Part shown: piece after piece, positions 8,185 through 52,491 of the stretch
How the letters are laid out: the number at the start of each line of letters is the position of its first letter
How positions within the stretch are numbered: the stretch's first letter is position 1
Assembly: GCA_964605205.1 (NCBI GenBank)
Contig: CAZSBL010000001.1
Span: 2,405 to 66,404, forward strand
Length of the DNA: 64,000 nucleotides
From: an uncultured Gemmatimonadaceae bacterium
Lineage (GTDB): Bacteria > Gemmatimonadota > Gemmatimonadetes > Longimicrobiales > RSA9
Reading direction: 5' to 3'
The notes under the pieces: generated by a model
Seen by the model: the letters and a program-made list of their open reading frames with translations, nothing else
What the model was told of the DNA's origin: nothing
Databases searched by the model: none
Translations under genes and position numbers: made by a program

Positions 8185-8294
8185 AATCGCGCTTTTCAGG
8201 GGGCAGGTTACCTGGATTGTACGGATTTACTTGCCACTGGTGCAAGACCTCCGTTTCCGGAGGGGGCCGGCGGGCGGACTCCGCGTACCGACCG

Positions 8295-10175: not shown

Positions 10176-10350
10176 AACCGTCTCTTTCCAGATGGGATTC
10201 GTTGGGAGGAGACCGACACTGCAAATTTCCGGCCGGTCAAGGGAGGGTCCACGCGAGGCGCCGGTCGGCCACCGGTCCGCCTCTTGCCCGGACCCCGGCC
10301 GCCACCTCACCTTCGAAGGGATCCGACCCACCGGTTTCCCGGGAGACGAC

Positions 10351-12087: not shown

Positions 12088-12272
12088 GGTCGGGGCGTTC
12101 GCGGTGAAGGTTCGGCACGCTGAACGGGCGTTACCGGGCCGGCTTTCCGGTCGTCTTGATGGATGACACCGGAAAATTTCCTGTAAGATTTTGGTGCCGA
12201 GCGGCATCTATAGGGTAGAAGAACCCGCAGATCTCTCTCTCCCCACCTTCCTCGTACAGAAGGGGAGGAACC

Positions 12273-12683
12273 GTGCGCAGGCTGCTCCGAGCGCTATTTC
12301 TGGCGGTGCCGATGACGATCATCGTCCTGGCGGCGGTGATCCCCGCGCCGCTGCCGTGGACCATGGGCGGGATGATCTTCGGCCTCCTGTTCTTCCAGCT
12401 GGCGCTAGTGGGGACCTTCGACTCGCTGCTCCCTGACACCCGGGTCTACCTGGAGCTGCGGGAGGAGACCGATCAGCTGCTCGAGCTGGTCCGGGAGCTC
12501 AACGCCGCCGCCGTCGACGCCCGGTGTGTGGGGATGGAGCCGGGCGACTACACGGAGCCCATCATCCGGCAGCTCCACGAGACCGTGGACCGGCTGCCGC
12601 AGTTCGCCGGCAAGCCGGCCGACAGCCACTTCCACCTCACGCCGAGCTCCGGCCGGGGGCTGACCGGCGACGAGGTCCACTAG
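12273..12683 (+). CDS. hypothetical membrane protein (136 aa)
   Basis: GTG start. Two N-terminal hydrophobic helices (LFLAVPMTIIVLAAVIPAPL, GGMIFGLLFFQLALVG), then a helical tail. No family recognised. Confidence 0.45.
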   Translation: MRRLLRALFLAVPMTIIVLAAVIPAPLPWTMGGMIFGLLFFQLALVGTFDSLLPDTRVYLELREETDQLLELVRELNAAAVDARCVGMEPGDYTEPIIRQLHETVDRLPQFAGKPADSHFHLTPSSGRGLTGDEVH

Positions 12684-12777
12684 ACGGTCCGGCGCCTGAC
12701 GGCTCGATGGGGCCGCGGCCGGCCCGCTCGCGCGCCTGCCGGGGCGGTGCCGAACCGCGATCCCGTCAGACTCGCCG

Positions 12778-13932
12778 CTACTTCAACAGCAGCTTGGCGA
12801 TAGTCTGCCGCTGCATATTGCTGGTGCCCTCGTAGATCGTGCCGATCTTGGCGTCCCGATAGAGCTTTTCCACCGGGTACTCCCGGCTGAAGCCGTAGCC
12901 ACCGAAGAGGTCCACGCACTCCGACGCGATCCACTGGGCCACCTCGGAGGAGTAGAGCTTGGCCATGGCGGCCTCGTTGAGGAACGGCTTGTCGGCCTCC
13001 CGGAGCCGGGCGGCGTTGTAGACCATGAGACGGGCGGCCTCGAGGCGGGTCCGCATATCGGCGAGCTGGAACTGCACGCCCTGGAAGTCACCGATGGGGC
13101 GGCCGAACTGCTCCCGCTCCTGCACGTAGCGGACGGTGTGGTCGAGGGCGCCCTGGGCGAGCCCGACCATCTGTGCGCCGATCCCGATGCGGCCCTCGTT
13201 GAGCTGCTCGATGGCGATCTTGTAGCCCTTCCCGACCTCGCCGATCACGTTCGCGCCCGGGACCCGGACGCCGTCGAAGACCAGCTCCACGGTGGACGAG
13301 GCCCGGATCCCGAGCTTGTCCTCCTTCTTGCCGACGGTGAAGCCGTCCATCCCGCGCTCCACGACGAACGCGGTGATCCCCTTGTAGCCGGCGTCCGGGT
13401 CCACGGTGGCGAAGACGATGAAGATGTCGGCTTCATCGCCGCTGGTGATCCAGAGCTTGGTGCCCTCGAGGATCCAGTCGGCGCCGTCCCGGGTGGCGCG
13501 GGTGGTGAGGGAGAAGGCGTCGGAGCCGGCGCCGGCCTCGGAGAGGGCGTACGCACCGACCGCTTCGGAAGCGAGACGCGGCAGGTAGCGAGCGATCAGG
13601 TCGTCGCCGCCGTAGCGCTTGATGCCGGTGTCGACAAGCGTATTCTGGACGTCCACGAGCACCGCCACGGCCGGGTCGACGCGGGCGAGCTCTTCGACCA
13701 CGATCACCGACGCGAAGAAGGTGCCGCCAGTGCCGCCGTGCTCCTCCGGGATCTCGATCCCCATGAGCCCCAGCTCGAAGAGGCTCTCGATGAGGTCCGG
13801 GTCCATGCGGGCGTCCCGGTCCATGTCCATGACCCTGGGCGCGATCTGCTCTTCCGCGAACTGGCGGACCATGTCGCGGAACATGCGTTCCTCTTCGCTC
13901 AGCGCAGTGAGGGCCGGGCGCTCGATATCCAT
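12778..13932 (-). CDS. acyl-CoA dehydrogenase (short/medium-chain type, 384 aa)
   Basis: Blocks GAYALSEAGAGSDAFS and GGYGFSREYPVEKLYRDAKIGTIYEGTSNMQ are canonical ACAD motifs. Confidence 0.9.
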   Translation of the reverse strand: MDIERPALTALSEEERMFRDMVRQFAEEQIAPRVMDMDRDARMDPDLIESLFELGLMGIEIPEEHGGTGGTFFASVIVVEELARVDPAVAVLVDVQNTLVDTGIKRYGGDDLIARYLPRLASEAVGAYALSEAGAGSDAFSLTTRATRDGADWILEGTKLWITSGDEADIFIVFATVDPDAGYKGITAFVVERGMDGFTVGKKEDKLGIRASSTVELVFDGVRVPGANVIGEVGKGYKIAIEQLNEGRIGIGAQMVGLAQGALDHTVRYVQEREQFGRPIGDFQGVQFQLADMRTRLEAARLMVYNAARLREADKPFLNEAAMAKLYSSEVAQWIASECVDLFGGYGFSREYPVEKLYRDAKIGTIYEGTSNMQRQTIAKLLLK

Positions 13933-14037
13933 CGGTATTCGGGGTTCCGGGGAATGTGTCGGTGGCCGCCGTGATTATCCCGGCGACGTTGGCTATACTA
14001 GTCGTGGCGCACAGCTACGGAAAGTGAGGAGGCACGC

Positions 14038-19221: not shown

Positions 19222-20202
19222 TCACGTCTCCCGGGCCGCCGCCACCAGCTCGTCGATGATCTCGGCCACCGGCTTGATCTCGTGGATCCCGGCGACCGAC
19301 TTCCCGGCCTGCCAGAAGTCCTTCGTGCCCGACTCGTCGTAGGACGACCGCTTGAGCCGCCAGCCGGACCACAGGGCGTAGATGGTGCGCATGAGCCGCT
19401 TCCGCCGGCGGCCCTTGAGCATCCACCGGGCGATGGGCCCGGCTTCGGTTCCGAGCCGGTCGATATACGGCGTCTCGATCACGGACAGCGGCACGCCGGT
19501 GACGCGCTCGGTGAGGACGATGTCGTCCTCGTCGCTGCCCAGGATGGCCTGCTTGTACGGCTGCGCCGCGGTGCATTCCGGGGTGGCGATGAAGCGGGTG
19601 CCCATCTGGACGCCGTCGTAACCGAGCCGGAGCGCGTCGACGAACTCCTCGGGGGTGCCGATCCCGCCGGCGCAGACCATGGGCACGCCCAGGTCACCGA
19701 GCTCGTCCATCAGCTGTGCGGGCGTCTTCGGGCCCGCGTGCCCGCCGGCCCGGCTGTTGACCGCGATGAGCCCGTGGGCGCCGGACTCGAGGCCCTTGAG
19801 CGCCCACTTCCGCTCCGTCACGTCGTGGTAGACGACGCCGCCGTGGGGCTCCACGGCGTCCACCACCCACCGGGGCTTGCCCAGGCTCGTGACGAAGAAG
19901 CGTACGCCCTCTTCCAGCGCGATCTCGACCCACTCCCGCATCCGGTTCTCGTAGGTCCGCGACGACGCCTCGATGAGCGCGTTCATCCCGATGGGCTTCG
20001 ACGTCAGCGACTTGATGTGCCGGAGCCCCTCACGGAAGTCCCAGCCGTGCACGTAGGTCAGGGAAACGGGCTGGACGATCCCGATCCCGCCTGCCTCACT
20101 CGCGGCGGCCACGAGCTCGGGGTTCGAGCACGGGTACATGGCGCCGGCGATCACCGGGTACTCGATGTCCGCGGCTTCGGTGAGCTTCGTCTGCAGTTCC
20201 AT
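19222..20202 (-). CDS. nitronate monooxygenase / FabK-like FMN oxidoreductase (NMO family)
   Basis: YPVIAGAMYPCSNPELVAAASEAGGIGIVQP and VCAGGIGTPEEF blocks of the NMO TIM-barrel family. Confidence 0.75.
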   Translation of the reverse strand: MELQTKLTEAADIEYPVIAGAMYPCSNPELVAAASEAGGIGIVQPVSLTYVHGWDFREGLRHIKSLTSKPIGMNALIEASSRTYENRMREWVEIALEEGVRFFVTSLGKPRWVVDAVEPHGGVVYHDVTERKWALKGLESGAHGLIAVNSRAGGHAGPKTPAQLMDELGDLGVPMVCAGGIGTPEEFVDALRLGYDGVQMGTRFIATPECTAAQPYKQAILGSDEDDIVLTERVTGVPLSVIETPYIDRLGTEAGPIARWMLKGRRRKRLMRTIYALWSGWRLKRSSYDESGTKDFWQAGKSVAGIHEIKPVAEIIDELVAAARET

Positions 20203-20275
20203 AGTTCGTCGCCCTCAGCGCCGGCTTCGTAGTGGTAATCGTGCTTGTATTGGGGTGGCGTTTCACCCTCGCCCC

Positions 20276-20764
20276 TCAGTCCCCGCCCTCATCCCTCGGC
20301 CCCAGCCGCCATGTCACGACCACCTCCGCAACAACCTCGCCGGTCTCGTCGGTGAGGGTGGCGGACGCGGGGTCCTCGATGTCTTCCGGGATCGCCGGCG
20401 GCGGAGCAGCGCGGCCCGCGGCGGTGATGGTGCCCCGGGCCTTCTTGCGGTAGTCGACCTCGATCCGGACCGGGATGCCACGCACGTCCTCGGGCAGCGC
20501 CAGCGTCATGGCCAGCCCGCTGGCCAGCTCGCCGAGGTTGGCCAGAGCGATGGCGTGGACGGAGCGAAGGTGATTGCGCAGCCGGCGCCGCTCCCGGATC
20601 GAGACGGTGGCGCGCCCGGACTCGAGGGTGTGGACGTACGGCTGGATGGAGCCGGAGTAGGGCACCATCAGACGGATCAGCCAGCCGAAGACCCGGCGGC
20701 CACCGGGAAGGCGGGAAAGAGTGCGCCAGGCGGAGGCGAGGCGAGCGGTGGAGGTGTCGGGCAT
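20276..20764 (-). CDS. hotdog-fold thioesterase-like protein (DUF4442/PaaI-like)
   Basis: Track ORF trimmed to Met 20764. NHLRSVHAIALANLGELASGLA resembles the hotdog central helix. Weak, motif-level call. Confidence 0.5.
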   Translation of the reverse strand: MPDTSTARLASAWRTLSRLPGGRRVFGWLIRLMVPYSGSIQPYVHTLESGRATVSIRERRRLRNHLRSVHAIALANLGELASGLAMTLALPEDVRGIPVRIEVDYRKKARGTITAAGRAAPPPAIPEDIEDPASATLTDETGEVVAEVVVTWRLGPRDEGGD

Positions 20765-20780
20765 GGCTGGAAGATGAGGT

Positions 20781-20935
20781 GCGGACGGTGTTTGAAACAA
20801 CAGTTGACCCGTTGGAGTAGTGGTGCCGCCTGGCTCCGGGGCCGGCGGAAATGGCGTGGATCCATTCTTTTCCCGGATTCGGATTCGGCCGCATGTCTGT
20901 CCGGGACATCAACTGGCAATTCAAACACCGTCCGC
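20781..20935. repeat. 16-bp perfect inverted repeat pair bracketing 123 nt
   Basis: GCGGACGGTGTTTGAA (20781-20796) and TTCAAACACCGTCCGC (20920-20935) are exact reverse complements. The right arm runs into the first unit of the 15-nt array. Confidence 0.8.
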
Positions 20936-42135: not shown

Positions 42136-42996
42136 CTACTCGGCCGCCCAGAAGGTGCTCAGCGCCTCGCCGTCCGCGCTCTCCCGCAGCTTCTCGAATG
42201 CACGGTTCCGGATCTGGCGGATCCGCTCGCGGGTTACGCCGAGCAGTGAACCGATCTCTTCCAGCGTCCGCTCCTCGCCGTCATCCAGTCCGTAGTACAG
42301 GTAGAGGATCTTTCGCTCCCGCTCGGTCAGGTACTTCTCGAACATCCGGTCCAGGAACTCCCGCCGCGCCTGGCTCTCGACGCTCTCCTCGATATCGTCG
42401 CTCTCGGCACCGGCGAAGCGCTCCCCGAACGAGGCGCTGTCCCGGTCACCCCGGTCGATGGGGGCGTCCAGCGAAAGCTCGGAGGCCGCCACGCGTCGGA
42501 GCGCCCGCACCGTCTCGATGGGCTCCTCCATGTGCTCCGCGATCTCCTGGTCCGTGGGCGAGCGGCCCAGCAGCTGCGTCAGCGCCGTCTCCGTGCGGCT
42601 CAGCTTCACCAGATTCGAGTTCTGGTTCAGCGGGATCCGCACCGAGCGAGTCTGCTCGGCCAGCGCCTGAAGCACCGTCTGACGGATCCACCAGACGGCG
42701 TAGGAGATGAACTTCACGCCCTTGTCGGGATCGAACTTCTTCACCGCCTTCAGCAGGCCCTCGTTCCCGATGCACACCAGCTCCGCCAGGCCCAGGCCCC
42801 GGCCCTGGTACTTCTTCACGTACGAAATTACGAACCGTAGGTTCGCCGTCACCAGACGCTCCGCCGCCTCCTTGTCTCCCTCACGGGCCCGGGCGGCCAG
42901 CTCGCGCTCCTCCATCGGGTCTTCGATGAGCGGGTACTTCTCCACATCGAACAGGTACTGATCGAAAGAATCCGTCGCGCGCGAGTTCACGAACAT
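42136..42996 (-). CDS. RNA polymerase sigma-70 family factor (compact, 286 aa)
   Basis: Region 2 ANLRFVISYVKKYQGRG...KFDPDKGVKFISYAVWWIRQ, region 3, and region 4 LGVTRERIRQIRNRAFEKLRE. Confidence 0.85.
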   Translation of the reverse strand: MFVNSRATDSFDQYLFDVEKYPLIEDPMEERELAARAREGDKEAAERLVTANLRFVISYVKKYQGRGLGLAELVCIGNEGLLKAVKKFDPDKGVKFISYAVWWIRQTVLQALAEQTRSVRIPLNQNSNLVKLSRTETALTQLLGRSPTDQEIAEHMEEPIETVRALRRVAASELSLDAPIDRGDRDSASFGERFAGAESDDIEESVESQARREFLDRMFEKYLTERERKILYLYYGLDDGEERTLEEIGSLLGVTRERIRQIRNRAFEKLRESADGEALSTFWAAE

Positions 42997-43178: not shown

Positions 43179-43434
43179 CCCTCCCGGGCCCGCGCCGGCT
43201 CCTCCCCCCGGGCCAGTGCGGGGCAGGGTGCCAGATCGCGCCCGTGAAAACAGATGTTTTTGCGCGCGCTTTCGCGCGGCGGGCGGCGCGCGCGGTGCCC
43301 GGCTCTGGATGCGGCCTATGATGGCTGCGAGCCCCGCAGCTCGTCGAGGGCGAAGAAGCGTTTGATCTCGAGGTTGCCGGCCTCGAGGATGCGGTCGTTC
43401 ATGCGCTCGCGGAACTCACAGAATTCGTTGACGC

Positions 43435-44400
43435 TCAAGCGGTTGCGGGGATCAGGTGTTGGATGGCCAGCTCGATCTCGGGTCCGTCTTTCAGGAGGAA
43501 GAGGGTGTAGGTCGAGTCGTCGTCGCCTTCGACGTGCAGGATCTCGGCCCAGACGCCGGGCCGGTGTTGGATCCGTCGGGGAGCGGGGAGGGCGATGCGT
43601 CGTGCCCCGAACAGGGTTCGGTAGACGAATACGAGCCCGTGGACGGTGAGGACGAGCCAGCCGTTGCGGAAGGCCCCGGAGCCTTTCCGGCCGTGGAGTG
43701 CGGCGCGGGTCCCGTGGGGTGGCGCGGCGCCGAGGGGTGTATCATCGAGGAGGTGGCGGGCATAGCGCGGCATGTCTTCGAGCTCGCGCCATCGGGCGGG
43801 ACGGAAGATGGAGCGGAGCCAGGCGGCGGTGGCGCGGGACCCGAGGCGGAACGCTCTCCAGATCCGGGGCCCGAAGAGGGTGGCGATGAAGAGGAGCACG
43901 CCGGCGGCGATGAGGGTGTAGGTGGGGAAGCGGAACGCGAGGACGGCGAAGGCGGCGGCGAGGATGTCCTCGCCCACGCTGATCCAGGGGTGCCAGCGAG
44001 TGCGGAGGGTGGCGTTGAGGGCCATGCGGCTTCCGGCCTTGGTGCCGTGGGCGGCGAGGGCCACGACGAGGGCGAGGGCGGCGCCGCCGGCCATGATGGC
44101 GGCGGGCTGTCCCCACAGCGCGGCCACGGCCAGGAGCGCGGCGCCGGGGGCCCGGATGAAGGTGTGGACGGTATCCCAGAGGGAGTCGGCGTGGCGGATC
44201 TTGTCGATGACGGCCTCGACCATGTAGAGGGCCACGGCGCTGGCGATGACGATCCACCCTTCGAGGCCCTGGAGGCCGGTGGGGAGGGCGGGCAGGAGGT
44301 CGAAGCGGGAGAGGATGCCGAGGGCGGCCACGGTGAGGTAGAGGTTGAGGCCGCAGGCGACGGCCATGCCGACGAGCTGGCCGGCCATCACGAGGGTCAT
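43435..44400 (-). CDS. DUF4126-like polytopic membrane protein with C-terminal PH-like beta-rich domain
   Basis: Track ORF 43435..44982 trimmed to Met 44400 (ATGA overlap with the KS stop). N-terminal ~190 aa are hydrophobic helices (GLNLYLTVAALGILSRF, AALLAVAALWGQPAAIMAGGAALALVVALAAHG). The C-terminus NGWLVLTVHGLVFVYR...YTLFLLKDG looks PH/GRAM-like (inference). Confidence 0.55.
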   Translation of the reverse strand: MTLVMAGQLVGMAVACGLNLYLTVAALGILSRFDLLPALPTGLQGLEGWIVIASAVALYMVEAVIDKIRHADSLWDTVHTFIRAPGAALLAVAALWGQPAAIMAGGAALALVVALAAHGTKAGSRMALNATLRTRWHPWISVGEDILAAAFAVLAFRFPTYTLIAAGVLLFIATLFGPRIWRAFRLGSRATAAWLRSIFRPARWRELEDMPRYARHLLDDTPLGAAPPHGTRAALHGRKGSGAFRNGWLVLTVHGLVFVYRTLFGARRIALPAPRRIQHRPGVWAEILHVEGDDDSTYTLFLLKDGPEIELAIQHLIPATA

Positions 44401-45662
44401 GGGGCCCTCCGGATCACCAGCGACGCGTTGATTCCGCCGAACCCGAAGGAGTTGGAGAGACAGACCCGGGAGTGGTGGTCGCGGCCGGAGCCGGTGACGT
44501 AGTCGAGGTCGCACTCGGCGCCCCCGTCGTGAAAGTTGACGGTGGGCGGGACCCAGTCGTGTTCCATGGCCAGGCAGGCGATGGCCACCTCCATGGCGCC
44601 GGAGGCGCCGAGGGCGTGGCCGTGGTAGGCCTTGGTGCCGCTCACCGGCACGTGGTAGGCGTGGTCCCCGAGGACCTGCTTGATGGCGTCGGTCTCGGTA
44701 CTGTCGTTGAGGGGCGTGGACGAGCCGTGGGGATTCACGTAGTCGACCGTTTCGGGGGTCAGGCCGGCGGAGCGGAGCGCCAGGCGCATGGCCCGTGCGG
44801 CCTGGCTCCCATCGGGGCGGGGCGCGGTCATGTGATGGGCGTCGTTGGTGGTGCCGTAGCCGGCGAGCTCGCCGTAGATCCGGGCGCCTCGCTCCACGGC
44901 CCGGTCCCAGCGCTCGAGGACCACGGTGCACCCGCCCTCGCCCATGACAAACCCGTCGCGGTCCTTGTCGAACGGGCGGCACGCGGCTTCGGGCTCGTTG
45001 TTCCGGGTGCTCATGGCGCGGATCAGGGAGAAGGCACCGAAGGAGAGGGGCGCCAGCGGCGCTTCCACACCGCCGGCCACGGCCACCTCACTGGTGCCGT
45101 CGCGGATCAGGCGGAACGCCTCACCGATGGCGATGGTGCCGGAGGCGCACGACATGGCGTTGGTGGCGTTGGGGCCGGTGAAGCCGAACTCGATGGCCAC
45201 GCCACAGGAGGCGGCGCCTCCGAAGGTAGTGAGGGCGACCCGGGGGTCCACGGCCCGCTTCCCGCCCCTGACCAGGTTGACCACCTGCTCCTCGGCGTAC
45301 GCCACGCCGCCGAGGGCGGAGCCGAACTGCACCGCCACCGCATCCGGATCGATGTGGTCGGGCTCGAGGGCGGCGTCGGCGAGGGCCATGCGGGTGGTGG
45401 CCACGGCGAAGTGCATGAACCGATCGAGGCGCCGGACCTTCTGCGCGTCCATGAAGTCGGCGGGGTCGAAGTCGTCGACCTCGGCCACGAGGTGGGAGCG
45501 CCACTGGCTCGGGTCGAAGCGGGTGGCTCGCCGGATCGGGGACCGGGCCGCGCGCAGGCCGGCCAGCAGCCCGTCGGGGCCGGAGCCCACGGCGGTGATG
45601 GGTCCGATGCCGGTGATCGCCACCCGGTGCGGCGCGCCATTGGGGTCCACATCGTCACGCAT
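44397..45662 (-). CDS. FabF/FabB-type beta-ketoacyl synthase (accessory, non-fab context)
   Basis: Track ORF trimmed to Met 45662. RVAITGIGPITAVG N-terminus. Cys-His-His triad in AMSCASG, DAHHMTAP and NPHGSSTPLND. Also SGTKAYHGHALGASG and the C-terminal SNSFGFGGINASLV. Confidence 0.85.
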   Translation of the reverse strand: MRDDVDPNGAPHRVAITGIGPITAVGSGPDGLLAGLRAARSPIRRATRFDPSQWRSHLVAEVDDFDPADFMDAQKVRRLDRFMHFAVATTRMALADAALEPDHIDPDAVAVQFGSALGGVAYAEEQVVNLVRGGKRAVDPRVALTTFGGAASCGVAIEFGFTGPNATNAMSCASGTIAIGEAFRLIRDGTSEVAVAGGVEAPLAPLSFGAFSLIRAMSTRNNEPEAACRPFDKDRDGFVMGEGGCTVVLERWDRAVERGARIYGELAGYGTTNDAHHMTAPRPDGSQAARAMRLALRSAGLTPETVDYVNPHGSSTPLNDSTETDAIKQVLGDHAYHVPVSGTKAYHGHALGASGAMEVAIACLAMEHDWVPPTVNFHDGGAECDLDYVTGSGRDHHSRVCLSNSFGFGGINASLVIRRAP

Positions 45663-46227
45663 CCGGGCCCTCCGCCCTCGGCTCCGTCTGGCCGTCGCCG
45701 GGCTCCGCCTGCGCCTGGCCGGTACCGGAGTGGAGCGTATCACCAGTGCCGTCCGGCTCCAGGGCCGCCTGGCGCTGGGCCTCGGCGCAGATGCCGTCGA
45801 GCGTACGCTGCGCGATGAAGCTGACGAAGTGCGGTCCGATGACGCGGTTCGCGGCGAAGCGGCTGATGAGCGGCCAGTCCGGACCGTCCCATTCGTGGGT
45901 GATCCGGACCACGGTGCCCTCGGTGGCGGGGAGGAAGATCCAGGCGACCTTCATCCCGGTGGTGATCCCATCGATGTGGTTGTAGCGGACGATGGGCTCG
46001 TCCGGGTCGGCCTCCATGTGAGACTTCCACCAGGTCGGCCACCGGAACGGCCCCGGGAAGTCGCGCCAGGCGGCCATCTCCACCACGCCGCGGCCGAAGC
46101 CGCGCTTTTCGCTGAAACGGACCCATCGGTAGTGGGGGAGGATCTCGGGCCACCGCTCGACGTCGGCGGCCACGCGGAAGACGATGTCGGCGGGCGCGAC
46201 GGTCACCTGCTGGTCGATGCGGATCAT
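45655..46227 (-). CDS. SRPBCC-superfamily protein (polyketide cyclase/dehydrase, START/Coq10-like)
   Basis: Track ORF trimmed to Met 46227 (ATGA overlap). VAADVERWPEILPHYRWVRF and VVRITHEW blocks are typical of Polyketide_cyc2-type SRPBCC proteins. Low-complexity acidic/Gly tail. Confidence 0.65.
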   Translation of the reverse strand: MIRIDQQVTVAPADIVFRVAADVERWPEILPHYRWVRFSEKRGFGRGVVEMAAWRDFPGPFRWPTWWKSHMEADPDEPIVRYNHIDGITTGMKVAWIFLPATEGTVVRITHEWDGPDWPLISRFAANRVIGPHFVSFIAQRTLDGICAEAQRQAALEPDGTGDTLHSGTGQAQAEPGDGQTEPRAEGPDA

Positions 46228-47489
46228 GGACGCTCCGGGTCGGGGGGAAAGAGGAAGCTCGATACCACGGCGGTCGAAAGCAAGGACCGGGGTGGGCGCA
46301 GGTCGCCGGTGACATCGATGAGCCGATCCATGGCGGGCCGTGCGTCGGCCAGGCGGCCGATTACCGGATTGGCGAGCCACGGTCGGGAGACCACGGCCTC
46401 GACCAGTCGCTGGACCCGCCGGACCGGGCGGGTCAGGGAGCGCCTGGCGGTGGCGTAGCGCCGGAGGGCCGTATCGAGGGCCCGGTGTTCGGCCTCCACA
46501 CGGTCGGCGGCCCGGGGGGTCCCGGCCAGCACCGGGCCGACGAAGCTCGCCAACCGCTCGGCGGCCGCCATGGCGTGGTAGATCCCCTGGCCGGTGAACG
46601 GGTCGTAGTAGCCGGCGGCATCGCCTACGAGGGCCGCGCCGTGGGCCACGGGCGATCGGGTCGGCCAGTCGAAGGGGCCGGAAGCCAGAAGGCCGTCGAT
46701 GGGCAGGTCGCCGAACCGTTGTCGCACCGACGGCACGCGCTCGAGCCAGCCGCGGAAGAAGGGCTCGGCGCCAGCGCGGAGACCTTCGCTGTGGTCGTCG
46801 TCGACCACCAGCGTGAGGTTGTACCGGGGCCCGGCCGGTGCCACGCCGAGCACGCCGCCGCGCAGGACGTGCATCTCGCCGTGCCGCATGAGAGTCGCTC
46901 CGGCCTGGCCGCCGGGTTGGGTCATGTGGGCGGTGAGGGAGACCTTGCGGAGCCGGGGCGGGCGGCGGATCACGCCGAGCTGTCGTGCCACCACGGACCG
47001 GAGCCCGTCGGCGCCCACTACCAGGCGGGCCGTGAGGCGCTCCCCTTCGCGGGTGACCACGCCACGCACCCGGCCCGGGGCCGGACCCGACGGATCGGCG
47101 CCGTCTTTCTCACGGGCCAGGCCGGTGACGTGGGCCTGCCGCAGGCGGCACCCCGCCTCGACGGCCGCGTCGACCAGGATGGCGTCGAGGATCCGTCGCT
47201 CGAGGGCCAGCGCGGTACGGTCGAGCCGGCCCGTGGCGACGCCGCCATCGGGCGCCACGATCTGCCACCGCTCGATGGGAGTGGCGGGTTCCCGGACGCG
47301 CGCGAGGAGCCCGATCCGTTCCAGGAGGAGCGTGGCGGCGGCGCTCATGCAGTCACCGCACGGCTTCGGCCGGGGGAACCGGGCGCGGTCGAGAAGGAGC
47401 ACGTCGAGGCCCTGCCGGGCCAGGAGGAGCCCGGTGATGGCGCCGCCCGGCCCGGCGCCGACCACGATGACATCGGCCGTGGGGCGCAT
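46224..47489 (-). CDS. FAD-dependent oxidoreductase (geranylgeranyl-reductase / flavin monooxygenase-like family)
   Basis: Track ORF trimmed to Met 47489. Dinucleotide fold DVIVVGAGPGGAITGLLLARQG, plus PKPCGDC, VGADGLRSVVAR and LVGDAAGYYDPFTGQGI blocks. Confidence 0.75.
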   Translation of the reverse strand: MRPTADVIVVGAGPGGAITGLLLARQGLDVLLLDRARFPRPKPCGDCMSAAATLLLERIGLLARVREPATPIERWQIVAPDGGVATGRLDRTALALERRILDAILVDAAVEAGCRLRQAHVTGLAREKDGADPSGPAPGRVRGVVTREGERLTARLVVGADGLRSVVARQLGVIRRPPRLRKVSLTAHMTQPGGQAGATLMRHGEMHVLRGGVLGVAPAGPRYNLTLVVDDDHSEGLRAGAEPFFRGWLERVPSVRQRFGDLPIDGLLASGPFDWPTRSPVAHGAALVGDAAGYYDPFTGQGIYHAMAAAERLASFVGPVLAGTPRAADRVEAEHRALDTALRRYATARRSLTRPVRRVQRLVEAVVSRPWLANPVIGRLADARPAMDRLIDVTGDLRPPRSLLSTAVVSSFLFPPDPERP

Positions 47490-47490
47490 G

Positions 47491-48210
47491 TCAGGCCTCC
47501 GCCCGGAGCACGAGCCGGTAGAAGGGGTGGCGGTGGACGGTGGCCCGGAGCTCGGCCGTGTGGGCGAGCTCGAGGAGCTCCGTGGGGGTGAACGACCGGC
47601 GCACCGAGAGGGGTCCATCGTGCCGCGTCACGAGGTTGCCGCGCCAGACCGTGGCGGCCAGGAGTCGGGCGCCGAGGTAGTTCGGCAGCGCACGCTCCAG
47701 CTCCCCCACCAGGATCCGCCCGCCCCGGGCGACCCGGGCCGCCTCGCGCAGGAGGGTGGTGAGGTCGGGCCCGTCCATGTGGTGGAGCGTCATCCCGAGG
47801 TGGACCAGGTCGAAGGCGCCGTCCCGGAAGGGGAGGCGGAGCCCATCGCCGCGGACCAGCCCGATACGGGGCTCCCGTTCGCGGGCAGCGGCGAGGGTCC
47901 GGGCATGGACGTCGAGGCCGGTCACGTGGGCCGGCCGGCCCCGGCGCCGTGCCCAGCGGGCGATGGCGGCGGCCAGGTCGGCGGCGCCGGTCCCCACGTC
48001 GAGGACCCGGGCCGGCCCGGACGCCGGAGCCACCGCCTCGTCGCCGGGAGCCGGGAGCGCCCACGGCAGGTGGCGCAGGAGCGCGCGCCGGGCGCCGAGC
48101 CAGCGGTTCACGGCCACGATGTGCCCGAGGGCCGAGCGGAGCGCGTCCGGATCCACGTCCGCCGCGTCCATCCGCTCCGGCGTCTCCACGGCGCGGTCGA
48201 GGCGCGTCAT
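47491..48210 (-). CDS. class I SAM-dependent methyltransferase
   Basis: Motif I VLDVGTGAADLA, post-I HVTGLDV, motif II/III FDLVHLGMTLHHM and GGRILVGE. Confidence 0.8.
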   Translation of the reverse strand: MTRLDRAVETPERMDAADVDPDALRSALGHIVAVNRWLGARRALLRHLPWALPAPGDEAVAPASGPARVLDVGTGAADLAAAIARWARRRGRPAHVTGLDVHARTLAAAREREPRIGLVRGDGLRLPFRDGAFDLVHLGMTLHHMDGPDLTTLLREAARVARGGRILVGELERALPNYLGARLLAATVWRGNLVTRHDGPLSVRRSFTPTELLELAHTAELRATVHRHPFYRLVLRAEA

Positions 48211-50036
48211 CAGTGGGGGAAGTGCAGGAGGCTACCGGTGATCGGCGGGATGCGGGAGCGGCCGATCCGCGGATCGAGGAACGGCGCGGACACGCCCAGG
48301 TACTCACCGACTCCGATCAGGAGCTGGAAATCGCCGAGGCGCGAGTCGGGGCCGATGGGGACCGCGACATCGATCCGATAGGTGTTCGTCCCGCCGGCCG
48401 GGAAGTTGATCCGGAGCCCGGTCCCGAGGGTGCCGCGCCAGCCGGAGTCGATCCCGAACGGCGCGTCGCCGGGCCACATCCGGCCCACGTCCAGGAAGAG
48501 CGATGTACCGATGTCCGCTACGTCCGGCAGCAGCCACTCCTGGTGCCAGCGGTCCTCTACGTTGAAGACCAGGCGGCGCCCCCCGGGAAACGCCTCGTCC
48601 GCCCAGCCGCGGAGAGCCTGCCTGCCGCCCAGCGTCAGCTGGAACGGGATCTCGGAGTTCCAGCCGCCGGCCGCGGCCGCGCGGAAGAGGAGCGTGTGAT
48701 TCCGGACCGCGTCGGGCTCCAGGTAGAGCAGCACCTCCCCTTCGGTCAGGAGGTCCCTCATCTCCGGCTCGCCCGGCTCCGTGTGGTAGTCGCGGCGGCT
48801 GTCGAACCGGACCCGGGACGCGACGAAGAGCTCCGGCGGGCCCGCGGCCACGTAGAAGTCGCTGGCCAGGTACATGTCGTTGTCGGTCCGGAACCCGGGC
48901 AGCGCCCGGGCCACGGCCAGGTCGATCTCGGCGCCCAGCCGAACGTCCTCGTCGCCGTCGAAGCTGTCGAGGCCCGATCGCTGCTGCCAGGTGATGTTCC
49001 GCTTCCCGAGCAGGAACACGCCCCGGACGTTCTCCAGCGGTCGGGTCAGCTCGAGCACCGGCTCCCGCAGCGCGGGTGATACGAGCTCGCGCTCGTCGTA
49101 GGCGCTTCCCATCACCCTGGTGATGGCGGTGGCCGGGTCGTGCGGATAAGAGAGCCGCTGCACGCTGACCCCGCCGCCCAGCATGGTCAGGTTGCCCCGC
49201 TCGCCGAACCGACGGATCCCGGCCACGTGGAACCCCTGCCGCCGGAGCGGGACGAGGATCCGGCAGCTCGGGCCGTCGGCCGGGCAGTCGGGGCCCCGGG
49301 GCAGCACGTAGTCGAACAGACGGTCCCGGTAGTGGAACCACTCCCGCATCGCCCAGGTGCCCATCTCCCCCAGGAAGGGGTAGCGGATCTCCTGGTGGAT
49401 CAGGTTCCCGGCCCGGGTCTTCCCGGCGGCCACCGTCAGGTCCCATCGCGTACGGAAGAGCTGCGGGGTGTTGTACCGTAGACCGTACGCCCGCGTGGGC
49501 TCCATGGCCTCGTAGAAGAACTCGAGCATCTGCCCGGTCCCCAGGATGTTCTTTTCCCGGACCGCCAGCTTCTCGAATTCGAGCTCACCACTTATGTCGT
49601 ATTGGATCTCGACCTGCGTGGTCCACTCGTCCTCGGTGTCCACAATCACGTGCCAGCTGCCGTCTTCCTGCCGAATGCCGTAGACATCGGCGTGCGCGAT
49701 GAAGTCGTAGGCCCGCAGCAGGCGCCCGGACTCCTCCAGCAGGACGGGATCGTAGCACTGGCCTCGCCCGAAGAGCAGCTCGCGACCGATGAACTCCTTG
49801 CCGGTCCGGACGTGGAGCTTGTTCGCCAACGAGTACGCCCACCGGAACCGGGCGTCGAGACCCGGGTCCGAGGTGTCGAAGATCGAGTGGTTGTCTACGA
49901 AGATCTCCTCGATCACCCCGTTCGCACACGTGTCCGCGGCCCCCTCCTGCCCCGCCGCCGGCACCGCCACGAGAACGGCCAGTACGGTGGCAGAAAGGAG
50001 CCCGAGACGGCGCACGCTGGCAGCTCGAAAGCTCAT
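48210..50036 (-). CDS. Omp85-family outer-membrane beta-barrel protein with a single POTRA-like domain
   Basis: Track ORF trimmed to Met 50036. Signal peptide LLSATVLAVLVAVPAAGQ. One POTRA-like module (IEEIFVDNHSIFD...VIVDTEDEW). Barrel with an RGW loop motif (QALRGWADEAFPG) and terminal strands GTLGTGLRINFP...TYRIDVAVPI. Its stop shares a base with the methyltransferase ATG. Confidence 0.65.
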   Translation of the reverse strand: MSFRAASVRRLGLLSATVLAVLVAVPAAGQEGAADTCANGVIEEIFVDNHSIFDTSDPGLDARFRWAYSLANKLHVRTGKEFIGRELLFGRGQCYDPVLLEESGRLLRAYDFIAHADVYGIRQEDGSWHVIVDTEDEWTTQVEIQYDISGELEFEKLAVREKNILGTGQMLEFFYEAMEPTRAYGLRYNTPQLFRTRWDLTVAAGKTRAGNLIHQEIRYPFLGEMGTWAMREWFHYRDRLFDYVLPRGPDCPADGPSCRILVPLRRQGFHVAGIRRFGERGNLTMLGGGVSVQRLSYPHDPATAITRVMGSAYDERELVSPALREPVLELTRPLENVRGVFLLGKRNITWQQRSGLDSFDGDEDVRLGAEIDLAVARALPGFRTDNDMYLASDFYVAAGPPELFVASRVRFDSRRDYHTEPGEPEMRDLLTEGEVLLYLEPDAVRNHTLLFRAAAAGGWNSEIPFQLTLGGRQALRGWADEAFPGGRRLVFNVEDRWHQEWLLPDVADIGTSLFLDVGRMWPGDAPFGIDSGWRGTLGTGLRINFPAGGTNTYRIDVAVPIGPDSRLGDFQLLIGVGEYLGVSAPFLDPRIGRSRIPPITGSLLHFPH

Positions 50037-50127
50037 GGGATCGGGTGGATTCCAGGTCCTCGGGGTCGGGGTGGGAGAATCGCGCAACCGGACGCCGCAC
50101 GCAAGCGCGGAACGGCGCCTGATCGCC

Positions 50128-50156
50128 TTGCCATGGGCTGGCGCCAGCGATAGCCT
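50128..50156 (+). promoter_or_regulatory. candidate maeB promoter in the divergent region
   Basis: TTGCCA-N17-TAGCCT about 55 nt upstream of ATG 50212. By-eye prediction only. Confidence 0.25.
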
Positions 50157-50211
50157 TCGCATGCTCGAGTACGCGCACGATACAGACACGCGCAATGGAT
50201 AGAGGCACACC

Positions 50212-52491
50212 ATGTCAGACCGTAAGCGGGAAGCGCTGGAATATCACATCCAGGGGCGGCCCGGCAAGATACAGGTAGTACCGACGAAACCCGTCAGCAC
50301 GCAGCGCGACCTCTCCCTGGCGTACAGCCCCGGGGTGGCGGAGCCGTGCCTGGCGATCCAGGAGAACCCGGAAGACGTGTTCAAGTACACCGCCCGGGGG
50401 AATCTGGTGGCGGTGGTCTCGAACGGCACCGCTGTGCTGGGGCTGGGCAATCTCGGGGCGTTGGGCTCGAAGCCGGTGATGGAGGGGAAGGGCGTGCTGT
50501 TCAAGCGGTTCGCCGACATCGATGTCTTCGATATCGAGGTGGACACGGAGGATCCGGATGAGGTAGTGGATTTCTGCACGCTTATGGAGCCCACGGTTGG
50601 CGGGATCAACCTGGAGGACATCAAGGCGCCGGAGTGTTTCCATATCGAGGAGGCGCTGAAGGAGCGGCTCGAGATCCCGGTGTTCCACGATGACCAGCAC
50701 GGGACGGCGATCATCAGCGGCGCAGGCTTGATGAACGCGCTGGAGATCGTGGGGAAGAAGATCGAGGACGTGAAGATCGTGTTCAGCGGGGCGGGCGCAT
50801 CGGCCATCGCCACGGCCAACCACTATGTGACCATGGGAGCCCGTCGCGAGAACATCTGGATGTGTGACAGCACGGGGCTGATCACGAAGGAGCGAGAGGG
50901 GTCGCTGAACAAGTACAAGGCGGCGTACGCCCAGGACTCGCCGGAGAGTGATCTCCGGGCGTGCATGGAGGGAGCCGACGTGTTCGTGGGGCTGAGCGTG
51001 AAGGGTCTGGTGGACGGCGAGATGGTGAAGTCGATGGCCGACAAGCCGATCATCTTCGCCCTGGCCAATCCGGACCCGGAGATCCTGCCGGAAGAGGTGA
51101 ACGCCGTTCGGGACGACGCCATCATGGCCACGGGCCGGAGCGACTACGACAACCAGGTCAACAACGTGCTCGGCTTTCCGTTCATCTTCCGGGGCGCGCT
51201 GGATGTGCGAGCCCGGGCCATCACCGACAACATGAAGCTGGCGGCGACCCACGCGCTGGCGGAGCTGACGCGGCAGGACGTGCCGGAGTCGGTGGCGCAC
51301 GCGTACGGCGAGGAGAAGTTCGAGTTCGGGCCCCGCTACATCATCCCGAAGCCGTTCGACTACCGGGTGCTGCTCTGGGTGGCGCCGGCGGTGGCGCGTG
51401 CGGCGATCGAGGATGGTGTGGCCCGACACGAGCTGGAGCCGGAGGAGTATCGGACCATGCTGGAGGCGCGGCTCGGGCGTCGCCGCGAGGTGATGCGGGA
51501 CCTGATGCTGATCGCGAAGCGGGATCCCCACCGGATCGTGTACCCGGATGGGGAGAACGACCGCGTGATCCGGGCGGTCCGCCAGGCGGTGGATGAGGGG
51601 ATCGTGCGGCCGGTGCTGCTGGGCCGAGGGGATCGGATCCGCGAGCGCGCCGAAGAGCTGGGGGTCAGCCTGGACGGCGTGGAGGTGGTGGATCCGAACG
51701 CGGAAGAGGAGGTGCAGGAGCGGTATGCCCGGAGGCTGTTCGAGGCTCGGCAGCGGAAGGGCCTCACGCTGGGCGAGGCCCGGGAGCGGCTCCGGCAGAC
51801 CAAGTACTTCGGCTACATGATGGTGGCGGAGGGTGACGCGGATGGCGCCGTGGCCGGTGTGGACTCGCACTATCCGGAGACGATCCGGCCCGCGCTGGAG
51901 TGTATCGGTACGGCCCCGCCGGTGGACCACGTGGCGGGGCTCTACATCATGGCGCTCCAGAACGACCTGATCTTCTTCGCCGACACCACCGTCAACATCG
52001 ATCCCGATGCGGAGACGCTGTCGGAGATCGCGCTGATGGCGGCGGATTTCGTCGAGCGGCTGGGGATCGCCCCCCGGATCGGCATGCTGTCGTTCTCCAA
52101 CTTCGGCTCGAGCCGTGTGCCGGAGGCGCAGAAGGTGCGTGATGCCGTCGCACTGGTACGGGAGAAGCGACCGGAGCTCAAGATCGATGGCGAGATGCAG
52201 GCGGATACCGCCGTGGTCGAGGAGATCCTGGAGGAGCGCTATCCGTTCAACACCATGGGCGGGACGGCGAACGTGCTGATCTTCCCGAACCTGGGCGCGG
52301 CGAACGTGGCGTACAAACTGCTGTCCCGGATCGGGGGTGCCGAAGCCATCGGCCCGGTGCTCATGGGGATGGCGAAGCCCGTCCATACGCTGCAGCGCGG
52401 GAGCGAGGCGGCGGATGTGGTGAACCTGACGGCGCTGGCCGTGGTGGATGCACAGCGGAGCAGCCGTCTGGCCGAGATCGAGGACAACTAG
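50212..52491 (+). CDS. maeB: NADP-dependent malic enzyme (malic enzyme + PTA-like domain)
   Basis: 759 aa. N-terminal malic enzyme blocks (LSLAYSPGVAEPC, VFHDDQHGTAII, GAGASAIA) and a C-terminal phosphate-acetyltransferase-like domain. Confidence 0.9.
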   Translation: MSDRKREALEYHIQGRPGKIQVVPTKPVSTQRDLSLAYSPGVAEPCLAIQENPEDVFKYTARGNLVAVVSNGTAVLGLGNLGALGSKPVMEGKGVLFKRFADIDVFDIEVDTEDPDEVVDFCTLMEPTVGGINLEDIKAPECFHIEEALKERLEIPVFHDDQHGTAIISGAGLMNALEIVGKKIEDVKIVFSGAGASAIATANHYVTMGARRENIWMCDSTGLITKEREGSLNKYKAAYAQDSPESDLRACMEGADVFVGLSVKGLVDGEMVKSMADKPIIFALANPDPEILPEEVNAVRDDAIMATGRSDYDNQVNNVLGFPFIFRGALDVRARAITDNMKLAATHALAELTRQDVPESVAHAYGEEKFEFGPRYIIPKPFDYRVLLWVAPAVARAAIEDGVARHELEPEEYRTMLEARLGRRREVMRDLMLIAKRDPHRIVYPDGENDRVIRAVRQAVDEGIVRPVLLGRGDRIRERAEELGVSLDGVEVVDPNAEEEVQERYARRLFEARQRKGLTLGEARERLRQTKYFGYMMVAEGDADGAVAGVDSHYPETIRPALECIGTAPPVDHVAGLYIMALQNDLIFFADTTVNIDPDAETLSEIALMAADFVERLGIAPRIGMLSFSNFGSSRVPEAQKVRDAVALVREKRPELKIDGEMQADTAVVEEILEERYPFNTMGGTANVLIFPNLGAANVAYKLLSRIGGAEAIGPVLMGMAKPVHTLQRGSEAADVVNLTALAVVDAQRSSRLAEIEDN

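Follow-up and report, generated by a model that had tools for sequence, protein, structure and literature searches.

What does a ketosynthase (KS) gene do in a string of six closely packed genes with no acyl carrier protein (ACP) gene at its side, and how many of its neighbours share its task? The question is raised by a 64,000-nucleotide stretch of DNA, hereafter called the window, from an uncultured Gemmatimonadaceae bacterium (contig CAZSBL010000001.1, positions 2,405 to 66,404). Its minus strand encodes in succession an Omp85-like protein, a class-I S-adenosylmethionine-dependent methyltransferase (MT), a flavin adenine dinucleotide (FAD)-binding flavoprotein, a SRPBCC protein, the KS and a DUF4126 membrane protein. 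A preliminary description of the locus had taken the whole string for a minimal lipid or polyketide-tailoring pathway wired to an outer-membrane barrel and to the DUF4126 protein. The analysis reported here favours a smaller functional unit, a biosynthetic cassette of four genes (MT, flavoprotein, SRPBCC and KS) which would act on the housekeeping ACP; a probability of about 0.5 is assigned to this reading. The product is probably a modified lipid or polyketide. Within the cassette, the translationally coupled SRPBCC-KS pair appears to be the obligatory core. The conserved unit is smaller than the six-gene string originally proposed. Cassettes of this kind were found in Gemmatimonadota and Chloroflexota, at one locus which we assign to Planctomycetota on reading, and in further lineages known from metagenomes.

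Gene neighbourhoods were compared in two sets of loci. Phylum counts derive from tblastn searches in which ten window proteins were compared with 84 Gemmatimonadota loci, while the distant set comprised six Pfam-annotated loci and 80 further metagenomic loci; each count covers the loci with enough flanking sequence. The KS gene lies directly downstream of the SRPBCC gene at 75 of 76 Gemmatimonadota loci and at 50 of 55 distant ones, and the two genes overlap by 4-8 nt in 5 of 6 gene-called loci, which belong to different lineages. The MT gene is found within 3.2 kb of the SRPBCC gene in 49/54 Gemmatimonadota and 21/28 distant loci, the flavoprotein gene is present at 21/28 distant loci, and all four genes occur together in 47/54 and 17/28 loci, respectively. 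When all open reading frames (ORFs) at distant loci were clustered, no further family was seen to recur widely; the additional neighbours, each restricted to a lineage, were an aquaporin, a flavin reductase, an extracytoplasmic function (ECF) sigma factor and an ABC ATPase.

Four different cassette gene orders were counted. The commonest is MT-flavoprotein-SRPBCC-KS; MT-SRPBCC-KS-flavoprotein and SRPBCC-KS-MT-flavoprotein also occur, and flavoprotein-MT-SRPBCC-KS is the order in the Gemmatimonadota loci L068, L072, L078 and L084. In one lineage (L132, L143, L144, L145, L148, L152, L158, L167, L170) a flavoprotein gene and an abutting flavin reductase gene are followed by MT, SRPBCC, KS and aquaporin genes; here L167 and L170 give no MT match, L152 ends before the KS, and L160 displays the same type of order on a contig which begins at the flavin reductase. 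Natural fusions were detected as well, joining the SRPBCC domain either to the MT (P0132, 403 aa) or to the flavoprotein (P0203, 520 aa, encoded at L086, 9001-10563), and P0246 is a further fusion of this group. The retention of the four genes through rearrangement and fusion indicates that they work together, and is strong sequence evidence that they form a functionally linked set with the SRPBCC-KS pair as its core. Conservation of the KS-SRPBCC-flavoprotein-MT neighbourhood across phyla, a point which the preliminary description had marked for checking, is thus borne out in spite of the shuffled order and the fusions.

Partial versions of the set were also found. The flavoprotein gene is missing at the Gemmatimonadota loci L003 and L012, and MT-SRPBCC-KS arrangements lacking it occur elsewhere; SRPBCC-KS pairs devoid of both MT and flavoprotein genes were seen at L121, L127 and L164, and one such pair-only locus is read as Planctomycetota from its prepilin/DUF1559-type neighbours. 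The KS gene is missing at L089. At L006 (Longimicrobiales metagenome-assembled genome, JAWODW010000044.1, 5908-9539) the string is reduced to Omp85-SRPBCC-DUF4126, with MT, flavoprotein and KS genes all missing; its SRPBCC protein is intact, being 78% identical to that of the window and keeping every invariant residue of the family. The SRPBCC protein may therefore have a KS-independent role there, or the loss may be recent. At L086 and L090 the KS gene is followed by a gene of about 255 aa that has no meaningful Pfam or NCBIfam match. L090 also carries, in the flavoprotein position between MT and SRPBCC, a gene for a BchE-like B12-binding radical-SAM protein (155.7 bits to the BchE model, under its cut-off); another B12 radical-SAM gene follows just downstream, on the opposite strand (coordinates 7579-8997 and 11509-12975); the former may be an oxygen-independent substitute for the flavoenzyme. 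An apparent cytochrome P450::SRPBCC fusion (P0219, L171) was discarded as a probable chimera, as it lies on a 987-bp contig of about 2x coverage.

The SRPBCC family itself is large. A family profile retrieved 350 clusters (50% identity) at E <= 1e-10 among 1.84 billion representatives, and a second search, including distant members, retrieved 4057 proteins at the same threshold, the named ones among the matches listed belonging to Chloroflexota, Chloroflexia and Dehalococcoidia. The closest homologues of both the SRPBCC and the DUF4126 proteins, among the matches listed, derive from Longimicrobiales/Gemmatimonadota genomes assembled from metagenomes. A contig scan based on the close SRPBCC alignment returned Gemmatimonadota only, because its search patterns were too specific; the distant members came from the representative-library search and from a metagenome scan. 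A tblastn search of the SRPBCC protein against plasmids gave no match.

The outer genes of the string behave differently from the cassette. An Omp85 gene lies within 6.5 kb at 47 of 53 Gemmatimonadota loci and a DUF4126 gene at 24 of 49, while neither was found at any of 28 distant loci; the organism-named ones among the listed matches of the 207 DUF4126-protein homologues are all Gemmatimonadota. The proposed wiring of the pathway to an outer-membrane barrel and a DUF4126 protein is hence confined to this phylum and was abandoned as a general feature: Omp85 and DUF4126 are local, lineage-specific neighbours outside the conserved cassette. In this genome the string is compatible with an envelope destination of the product, a feature that the system as a whole does not conserve. 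Moreover, synteny with the block extends across Gemmatimonadota to pck, maeB, a sigma factor gene, ssb and polA, so that adjacency within the phylum is weak evidence of shared function.

Partners expected of a polyketide synthase (PKS) or of fatty-acid synthesis were searched around the cassette. With the E. coli AcpP sequence as tblastn query, no ACP was found in 1.89 Mb, corresponding to 171 loci and the window. Similarly, no second KS, which could serve as a chain-length factor (CLF), was detected by tblastn within about 8 kb at the 171 loci, nor in the 64-kb window, and no fab genes adjoin the cassette at any of these loci. No PP-binding, ketoreductase (KR), dehydratase (DH) or acyltransferase (AT) domain was seen in nine Pfam-annotated contexts and in the window, where checked, and Pfam searches (E <= 1e-5) of 38 further large window ORFs revealed no PP-binding, adh_short or acyltransferase domain, gaps such as 34.7-36.7 kb being unscanned. 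Sequences inserted between SRPBCC and KS genes at L141 and L169 were considered as possible ACPs and rejected, as they read as mobile, toxin-antitoxin or SMI1-like genes. The KS was accordingly confirmed to lie outside a fab context, as first described. The absence of ACP and of a second KS holds for the whole window too, while the wider statement that the 64 kb contain nothing fab- or PKS-like needs slight qualification. About 23 kb from the cassette, an NMO-family protein has FabK as its best NCBIfam match (137 bits, cut-off 453); its gene adjoins that of a DUF4442 protein, which we take to have a hot-dog fold, and two acyl-CoA dehydrogenases are also encoded in the window.

The KS has both halves of the ketoacyl synthase domain (Pfam ketoacyl-synt N and C, 151 and 131 bits) and is very similar to FabF. 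Its score exceeds the cut-off set for the PRK07314 subfamily, 'beta-ketoacyl-ACP synthase II' (478.6 bits against 387), and falls narrowly below that of the fabF equivalog TIGR03150 (490.8 against 493.75); among PDB sequences, it matches Synechocystis FabF with 390 bits and the actinorhodin KS-alpha with 295. The motifs AMSCASG, DAHHMTAP and NPHGSSTPLND align on the catalytic Cys, His and His of solved FabFs, and C172, H277, H312, K344 and the gating F408 (GFGG) are invariant in 55 cassette KSs, which upholds the intact triad originally noted. The protein is nonetheless set apart from the three canonical FabFs compared. Its identity to them is 43-46%, while these three, from three phyla, share 54-56% with one another, and other cassette KSs are 48-60% identical to it. 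In a neighbour-joining tree, the canonical set, made of Synechocystis, Thermus and Listeria FabF, split from the cassette KSs in 100/100 bootstraps.

Fifteen signature columns distinguish the cassette KSs, and concentrate at 116-117, 141-150, 169-171 (just before Cys172), 278 and 411. The changes include GI to AL at 116-117, FxxPMMIxxM to xxxLxVFxxA at 141-150 and GFGGH to GFGGI at 411. Segments 116-117 and 141-150 presumably correspond to I108 and F133-I138 of E. coli FabF, in the numbering we assume, and we take these residues to line the acyl-chain pocket. The KS may thus be read as a FabF-derived enzyme which has kept condensation chemistry and ACP dependence and whose acyl pocket has been remodelled.

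The SRPBCC protein matches Pfam Polyketide_cyc (39 bits), and no curated NCBIfam family covers it. Compared with PDB entries, the family profile matched BexL (4.8e-15), WhiE ORFVI (1.7e-12), TcmN (6e-8) and ZhuI (2.6e-6), all well ahead of the Coq10-like structure 1t17 (1.6e-4); a single-sequence search also ranked type II PKS aromatase/cyclases (ARO/CYC) first. The AlphaFold (AF2) model displays a helix-grip fold with a predicted local distance difference test (pLDDT) score of 87.8, the C-terminal tail being disordered from about residue 160. The top Foldseek matches of the model were TTHA0849, WhiE, ZhuI, TcmN, BexL and StfQ, with E values of 5e-10 to 1e-8 for WhiE, ZhuI and TcmN; TTHA0849, an uncharacterised Thermus protein, shares first place in this ranking. 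By profile and by modelled fold, therefore, aromatase/cyclases of type II PKSs are the nearest relatives of the protein, and the likeness initially proposed is upheld. Twenty residues are invariant in the family, including H32-Y33-R34, R55, H84 and H111. The conserved W26, Y33, W67 and S69 align with W28, Y35, W65 and S67 of TcmN, in the numbering which we assume for Trp28, Tyr35, Trp65, Ser67 and the catalytic Arg69 of that protein. Its own invariant polar set, H32/R34/R55/H84/H111, argues for an enzyme with its own kind of active site rather than for a passive lipid binder.

Assignment of the two remaining cassette proteins is less specific. The MT matches Methyltransf_25 (66 bits) and Methyltransf_11 (64 bits) in Pfam, and its best NCBIfam model is PRK06202, a 'hypothetical protein' (135.5 bits, cut-off 243). 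Models of known function do not reach their cut-offs: 43 against 158 bits for UbiE (TIGR01934), 46-50 against 235-420 for MenG, and a BioC score also far under its cut-off. PF02353, the family of cyclopropane fatty acid (CFA) synthase-type enzymes, gave no match in the MT, and no close solved structure was found by PDB sequence search.

For the flavoprotein, which matches FAD_binding_3 in Pfam (83 bits), the best model is TIGR02032, GG-red-SF (137.9 bits against a cut-off of 158.8), followed by QhpG (89), MenJ (65) and the Ubi hydroxylases (65). It carries the motifs GxGPxG, FPRxKxC44, DG and GDAAxxxDPFTGxG, and GxGxxG, K42-x-C44-G-[DE] and GDAAxxxDPFTGxG are kept in at least 90% of 35 family members; the aromatic Y-x-W-x-F-P motif of geranylgeranyl reductase (GGR)-type enzymes was not seen on reading the sequence. 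Its nearest PDB sequences are the FADH2-dependent halogenases CmlS (E 2e-12) and CndH (E 7e-10). A halogenase function was discarded, as WxWxIP is absent from all 35 members and the Lys expected of halogenases was not seen at its position. In L086 a 4Fe-4S ferredoxin (FdxA-like) gene precedes the flavoprotein::SRPBCC fusion gene, which is followed by the KS, and a HpaC/HsaB-type flavin reductase gene adjoins the flavoprotein gene in 9-10 loci. Such neighbours suggest that, in some lineages, the flavoprotein needs an external reductant. An oxygenase role is favoured by the flavin reductases and by the one BchE-like replacement, a C=C reductase role by the Cys motif; the flavoprotein would be a reductase or a monooxygenase that tailors the product. 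The flavoenzyme originally described is thus found again; given its GGR-type K-x-C-G-[DE] motif, a hydroxylase is only a candidate function.

These data may be combined into a mechanism. The KS, as a homodimer, would take an acyl chain and malonyl units from the housekeeping ACP and perform one or a few decarboxylative condensations. The SRPBCC protein would capture the resulting beta-keto or poly-beta-keto product within a polar pocket lined by His, Tyr and Arg, and cyclise, dehydrate or release it. MT and flavoprotein, the latter fed in some lineages by a ferredoxin or by a HpaC-type flavin reductase, would then tailor the product, and a hydrophobic, methylated and redox-modified compound would result. 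We would guess first at an alkyl lipid of phenolic or quinone-like nature, by analogy with the alkylresorcinol/alkylquinone lipids of the srs operon; the affinity of the SRPBCC protein for aromatase/cyclases, the TcmN-like MT fusion and the srs parallel all point that way.

Several observations weigh against this scheme. To our knowledge, every type II system needs a KS-beta/CLF and an ACP of its own. A KS that is 43-46% identical to FabF, and nearer to FabF than to KS-alpha, would be no less in keeping with the usual single-step elongation of fatty acids. TcmN's catalytic Arg69 aligns with Met71 of the SRPBCC protein (Gln in the family consensus) and is not conserved, and SRPBCC homologues sometimes stand alone (L006, L124, L136). 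In the flavoprotein, the GGR-type Cys motif suggests C=C reduction, not ring hydroxylation. We infer the product, and every catalytic step past the condensation, from sequence. Finally, SrsB is of the isoprenylcysteine carboxyl methyltransferase (ICMT) type, and the MT is not homologous to it (PMC6669644).

The most serious rival, possible although we hold it to be unlikely, places the system in fatty-acid synthesis. SRPBCC and KS would form a non-orthologous analogue of FabA/FabB (or of FabN/FabO or FabX/FabF), the SRPBCC 'dehydrase' making or isomerising an enoyl-ACP and the KS elongating it to an unsaturated fatty acid, while MT and flavoprotein would introduce a mid-chain methyl branch, as BfaB/BfaA do for tuberculostearic acid. 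Such a system needs neither an ACP nor a CLF of its own, and agrees with a KS that is very FabF-like, complete in catalytic and gating residues and changed in the presumed pocket segments; the GGR C=C-reductase motif of the flavoprotein, with TIGR02032 as its best model, also fits, as do SRPBCC-KS pairs standing without MT and flavoprotein genes or with the MT gene only. MT and flavin-reductase pairs which make methyl-branched fatty acids are established biochemistry, and BexL, the best PDB profile match of the SRPBCC protein, is presumably the ARO/CYC of a reducing system, with a role in dehydration. However, the SRPBCC protein does not have a hot-dog fold, and we know of no SRPBCC enoyl isomerase. 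Furthermore, the MT is UbiE-like and class-I, with no match to PF02353, HpaC-type flavin reductases typify two-component monooxygenases, and fab genes do not adjoin the cassette at any of the 171 loci. Fusions of the SRPBCC domain to MT or flavoprotein would also be odd if the former acted on C10-ACP and the latter two on phospholipid chains. The four-gene cassette reading can, in turn, be extended in the opposite direction, although we regard this as speculative and still somewhat less probable than the fatty-acid route: the SRPBCC-KS pair would be a minimal PKS of a kind not recognised before, in which a homodimeric KS, with no CLF or ACP of its own, assembles a short poly-beta-keto chain on the housekeeping ACP and a new ARO/CYC subfamily folds it to an alkyl-aromatic ring, which MT and flavoprotein then tailor to a methylated, quinone-like membrane lipid.

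Two further explanations are less likely than the fatty-acid route. In quinone tailoring, which we judge improbable, menaquinone would be the substrate of the module: the MT would resemble UbiE/Coq5, the flavoprotein MenJ/GGR or UbiH/Coq6, and the SRPBCC protein the quinone-binding Coq10, with the KS only loosely connected. The best models of known function for the MT are indeed MenG/UbiE, albeit weak (at most 50 bits), the flavoprotein matches MenJ and Ubi hydroxylases equally, many SRPBCC members are labelled RatA by JGI, and the SRPBCC Pfam family presumably also contains Coq10/RatA. A gene read as YceI-like, with 0 NCBIfam matches, lies between MT and flavoprotein genes in L019 (6089-6742), and UbiA and DoxX genes are near the KS-less cassette of L089. 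Yet the scores to quinone-enzyme models are all far under the cut-offs, ARO/CYC profile matches beat the Coq10-like 1t17 by 8-11 orders of magnitude, men, mqn and ubi genes are not among the recurrent neighbours, and the tightest and widest linkage is that of SRPBCC and KS, which also occur as a pair alone, not that of MT and flavoprotein. As little credit is given to the possibility that no dedicated pathway exists, the KS being the housekeeping FabF and the string reflecting a conserved gene order of Gemmatimonadota. The KS passes PRK07314 and almost reaches the fabF equivalog cut-off, and housekeeping genes are syntenic with the block across the phylum; but Chloroflexota and other lineages also have the four genes together, with completely different flanks, in different orders and, in some, fused. 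The KS, moreover, splits from the three canonical FabFs in every bootstrap, at an identity about 10 points lower, and it is missing at L006. Housekeeping fabF normally adjoins acpP, and tblastn found no ACP at the 171 loci.

The coordinates of the six genes and of the surrounding features are collected in Table 1. Number, positions and junctions of the genes, and their divergence from maeB, were re-read in the sequence and from the ORF listing, and agree with what had been described. From Omp85 to DUF4126, the genes meet in turn at TGATG, across a 1-nt gap, at ATGA, by an 8-nt overlap of the KS start with the SRPBCC stop, and at ATGA. Lengths and N-termini of homologues agree with the gene starts chosen, and the DUF4126 protein has a 100% match in one database protein (P0397). 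Pfam and NCBIfam scans returned the predicted families for the six proteins; POTRA Pfam models gave no match in the Omp85-like protein.

Table 1. Position of the six-gene string, of other features of the window and of examples from related loci. Coordinates refer to the window unless a locus is named.
Feature	Position	Strand	Remarks
Omp85-like gene	48210-50036	minus	608 aa, signal-peptide-like N-terminus
Class-I SAM-dependent methyltransferase (MT)	47491-48210	minus	239 aa
GGR-superfamily FAD-binding flavoprotein	46224-47489	minus	421 aa
SRPBCC protein	45655-46227	minus	190 aa
FabF-derived ketosynthase (KS)	44397-45662	minus	421 aa
DUF4126 membrane protein	43435-44400	minus	321 aa
CMD/AhpD-like remnant	43316-43438	minus	40 aa, overlaps DUF4126 stop (TTGA)
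maeB	50212-52491	plus	divergent from the Omp85 gene across 175 bp
Intergenic region Omp85/maeB	50037-50211		presumed promoter region of the six-gene string
Sigma-70-family factor	42136-42996	minus	286 aa, regions 2-4 only
NMO-family protein	19222-20214	minus	FabK-like
DUF4442 protein	20276-20908	minus	
Acyl-CoA dehydrogenase	8295-10922	minus	
Acyl-CoA dehydrogenase	12778-13974	minus	
Inserted TRZ/ATZ amidohydrolase, example	L015 3751-5148		family-level match, unspecific
Inserted TRZ/ATZ amidohydrolase, example	L019 3845-5227		family-level match, unspecific
Flavoprotein-flavin reductase-MT-SRPBCC-KS-aquaporin order, example	L143 2008-6898		

No promoter-like sites were detected on the minus strand inside 43435-50036, and no convincing terminator-like sites either, the one weak consensus match lying within the Omp85 gene. 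An Rfam scan found no RNA family or riboswitch inside the block or upstream of it; the region 50037-50211 gave neither a sigma-70 consensus match nor a Rfam match. Given the overlapping junctions and the lack of internal promoter-like or convincing terminator-like sites, the six-gene string is compatible with a single transcription unit in this genome.

The string was probably longer in the past. The translation of the CMD/AhpD-like remnant, LSVNEFCEFRERMNDRILEAGNLEIKRFFALDE..., matches the N-terminus of an intact gene of 112-126 aa found in L001/L002 and L019, and the remnant is annotated as a 40-aa gene on two further contigs of the same organism. The presence of an intact CMD/AhpD-domain gene at the same place in relatives suggests that the ancestral string had seven genes, the decayed seventh being peroxidase-like.

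The outer proteins of the string were also compared with known families. The Omp85-like protein matches Pfam Omp85 (28.3 bits, cut-off 24) over residues 462-562. Against the BamA model TIGR03303 it scores 37.4 bits, in the POTRA region, with a cut-off of 297; at this score, and with its 608 aa, identity with BamA was rejected. The DUF4126 domain (PF13548) is recognized at residues 10-175 with 112.9 bits, well over the gathering threshold of 27.5. The AF2 model of this protein (pLDDT 91.7) combines six long helices with a sandwich of seven strands (229-303), which is capped by a helix (309-316). Its matches in Foldseek were nearly all PH or PH-like, none being significant (E >= 4.7e-3), and no PH Pfam match was found in the C-terminus even at E <= 10. 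A PH-like beta-sandwich is therefore plausible at the level of the modelled fold, and the 'PH' label previously given to this region is not backed by Pfam.

Other genes may intervene in Gemmatimonadota relatives: a TRZ/ATZ-family amidohydrolase gene is often inserted between the Omp85 and MT genes, and genes read as OmpA-like sometimes part DUF4126 from KS. The TRZ/ATZ family also includes methylthioadenosine/S-adenosylhomocysteine (MTA/SAH), 5'-deoxyadenosine and aminofutalosine deaminases. The sigma-70-family factor encoded beyond the string is 85-100% identical, as protein, across all Gemmatimonadota loci examined, its neighbours being far less conserved; a consensus-like promoter, TTTACA-17-TATATT, lies upstream of its gene at 43178-43150.

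Soils are rich in Gemmatimonadota and Chloroflexota, yet few members of these phyla are in culture and hardly anything is known of their specialised lipids and metabolites; the SRPBCC family runs to thousands of members. Since the cassette has no ACP or chain-length factor, rules for mining biosynthetic gene clusters which look for every part of a type II PKS would, in our judgement, probably miss it. If the cassette is a PKS, the view of what aromatic polyketide or phenolic-lipid synthesis minimally requires would change; the minimal PKS outlined above, if real, would represent a third independent route to alkylresorcinols/alkylquinones, in addition to type III PKSs and DarAB. It would be widespread among Gemmatimonadota and Chloroflexota of soil, and linked to Omp85 in the former. 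If it is instead a FabA/FabB analogue, it would fill a gap in the unsaturated or branched fatty-acid synthesis of these phyla. On either reading, the four genes are a compact target, directly testable by heterologous expression.

The cassette may be compared with several described systems. Aryl-polyene, flexirubin and xanthomonadin clusters have in common with it a FabF-like KS, an MT, a flavoenzyme and possibly an outer-membrane destination. These clusters carry ACP, KS/CLF pairs, KR, DH, LolA-like and MMPL genes; their ACP, second KS, KR, DH, LolA-like and MMPL components were not seen in the cassette contexts and in the window, which confirms, for the Pfam-annotated contexts and the window, the difference from aryl-polyene and flexirubin clusters drawn in the preliminary description. 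With housekeeping FabF the KS shares fold, length, the triad C172/H277/H312, Lys344 and Phe408, and use of the host ACP is implied; at the loci examined, however, its gene is paired with the SRPBCC gene and not with acpP. FabA/FabB, FabN/FabO and FabX/FabF likewise combine a specialised FabF/B-type KS with one dedicated partner on the housekeeping ACP, although FabA/FabN/FabX-type partners are hot-dog dehydratases or NMO-type flavoenzymes, whereas the cassette partner is a helix-grip SRPBCC protein. BfaA/BfaB, which make 10-methyl fatty acids, are an MT and a flavin reductase acting on a lipid double bond; the cassette MT is outside the CFA-synthase family.

Type II PKSs (with the mono-domain cyclases whiE ORFVI, TcmN and ZhuI, or the di-domain BexL/StfQ) are close in composition, as they also feature a thiolase-fold KS beside a helix-grip ARO/CYC-like protein, an MT and a flavoenzyme. 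TcmN, whose PDB molecule name denotes an ARO/CYC-methyltransferase fusion, parallels the MT::SRPBCC fusion P0132. The cassette differs in having no KS-beta/CLF and no dedicated ACP at the 171 loci and no KR in the Pfam-annotated contexts, in a KS nearer to FabF than to the actinorhodin KS-alpha, and in its hosts, Gemmatimonadota and Chloroflexota instead of Actinomycetota. Of the type II PKS parts list recognized at the outset, the likeness is upheld for the SRPBCC protein and weakened for the KS. In the Streptomyces griseus srs operon, and in the synthesis of mycobacterial polyketide quinones, a condensing enzyme, an MT and a flavoprotein use fatty-acyl starters to make phenolic lipids of the membrane or alkylquinones (PMC6669644, PMC8086630). 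The parts-list logic is shared, but SrsA is a type III PKS while the cassette has a FabF-type KS, SrsC is a flavoprotein hydroxylase as opposed to a GGR-superfamily flavoprotein with a Cys motif, and the srs operon is without a SRPBCC protein. As SrsB is of the isoprenylcysteine carboxyl methyltransferase type (PMC6669644) and the cassette enzyme a class-I MT, homology of the two was discarded and the srs analogy was retained as a functional one. No description of the cassette was found in full-text literature searches, where related papers concern the srs operon only, in agreement with the initial impression of an unrecognised combination. The cassette is undescribed, yet each of its components belongs to a known superfamily, and its logic of ketosynthase, cyclase and tailoring enzymes is a familiar one.

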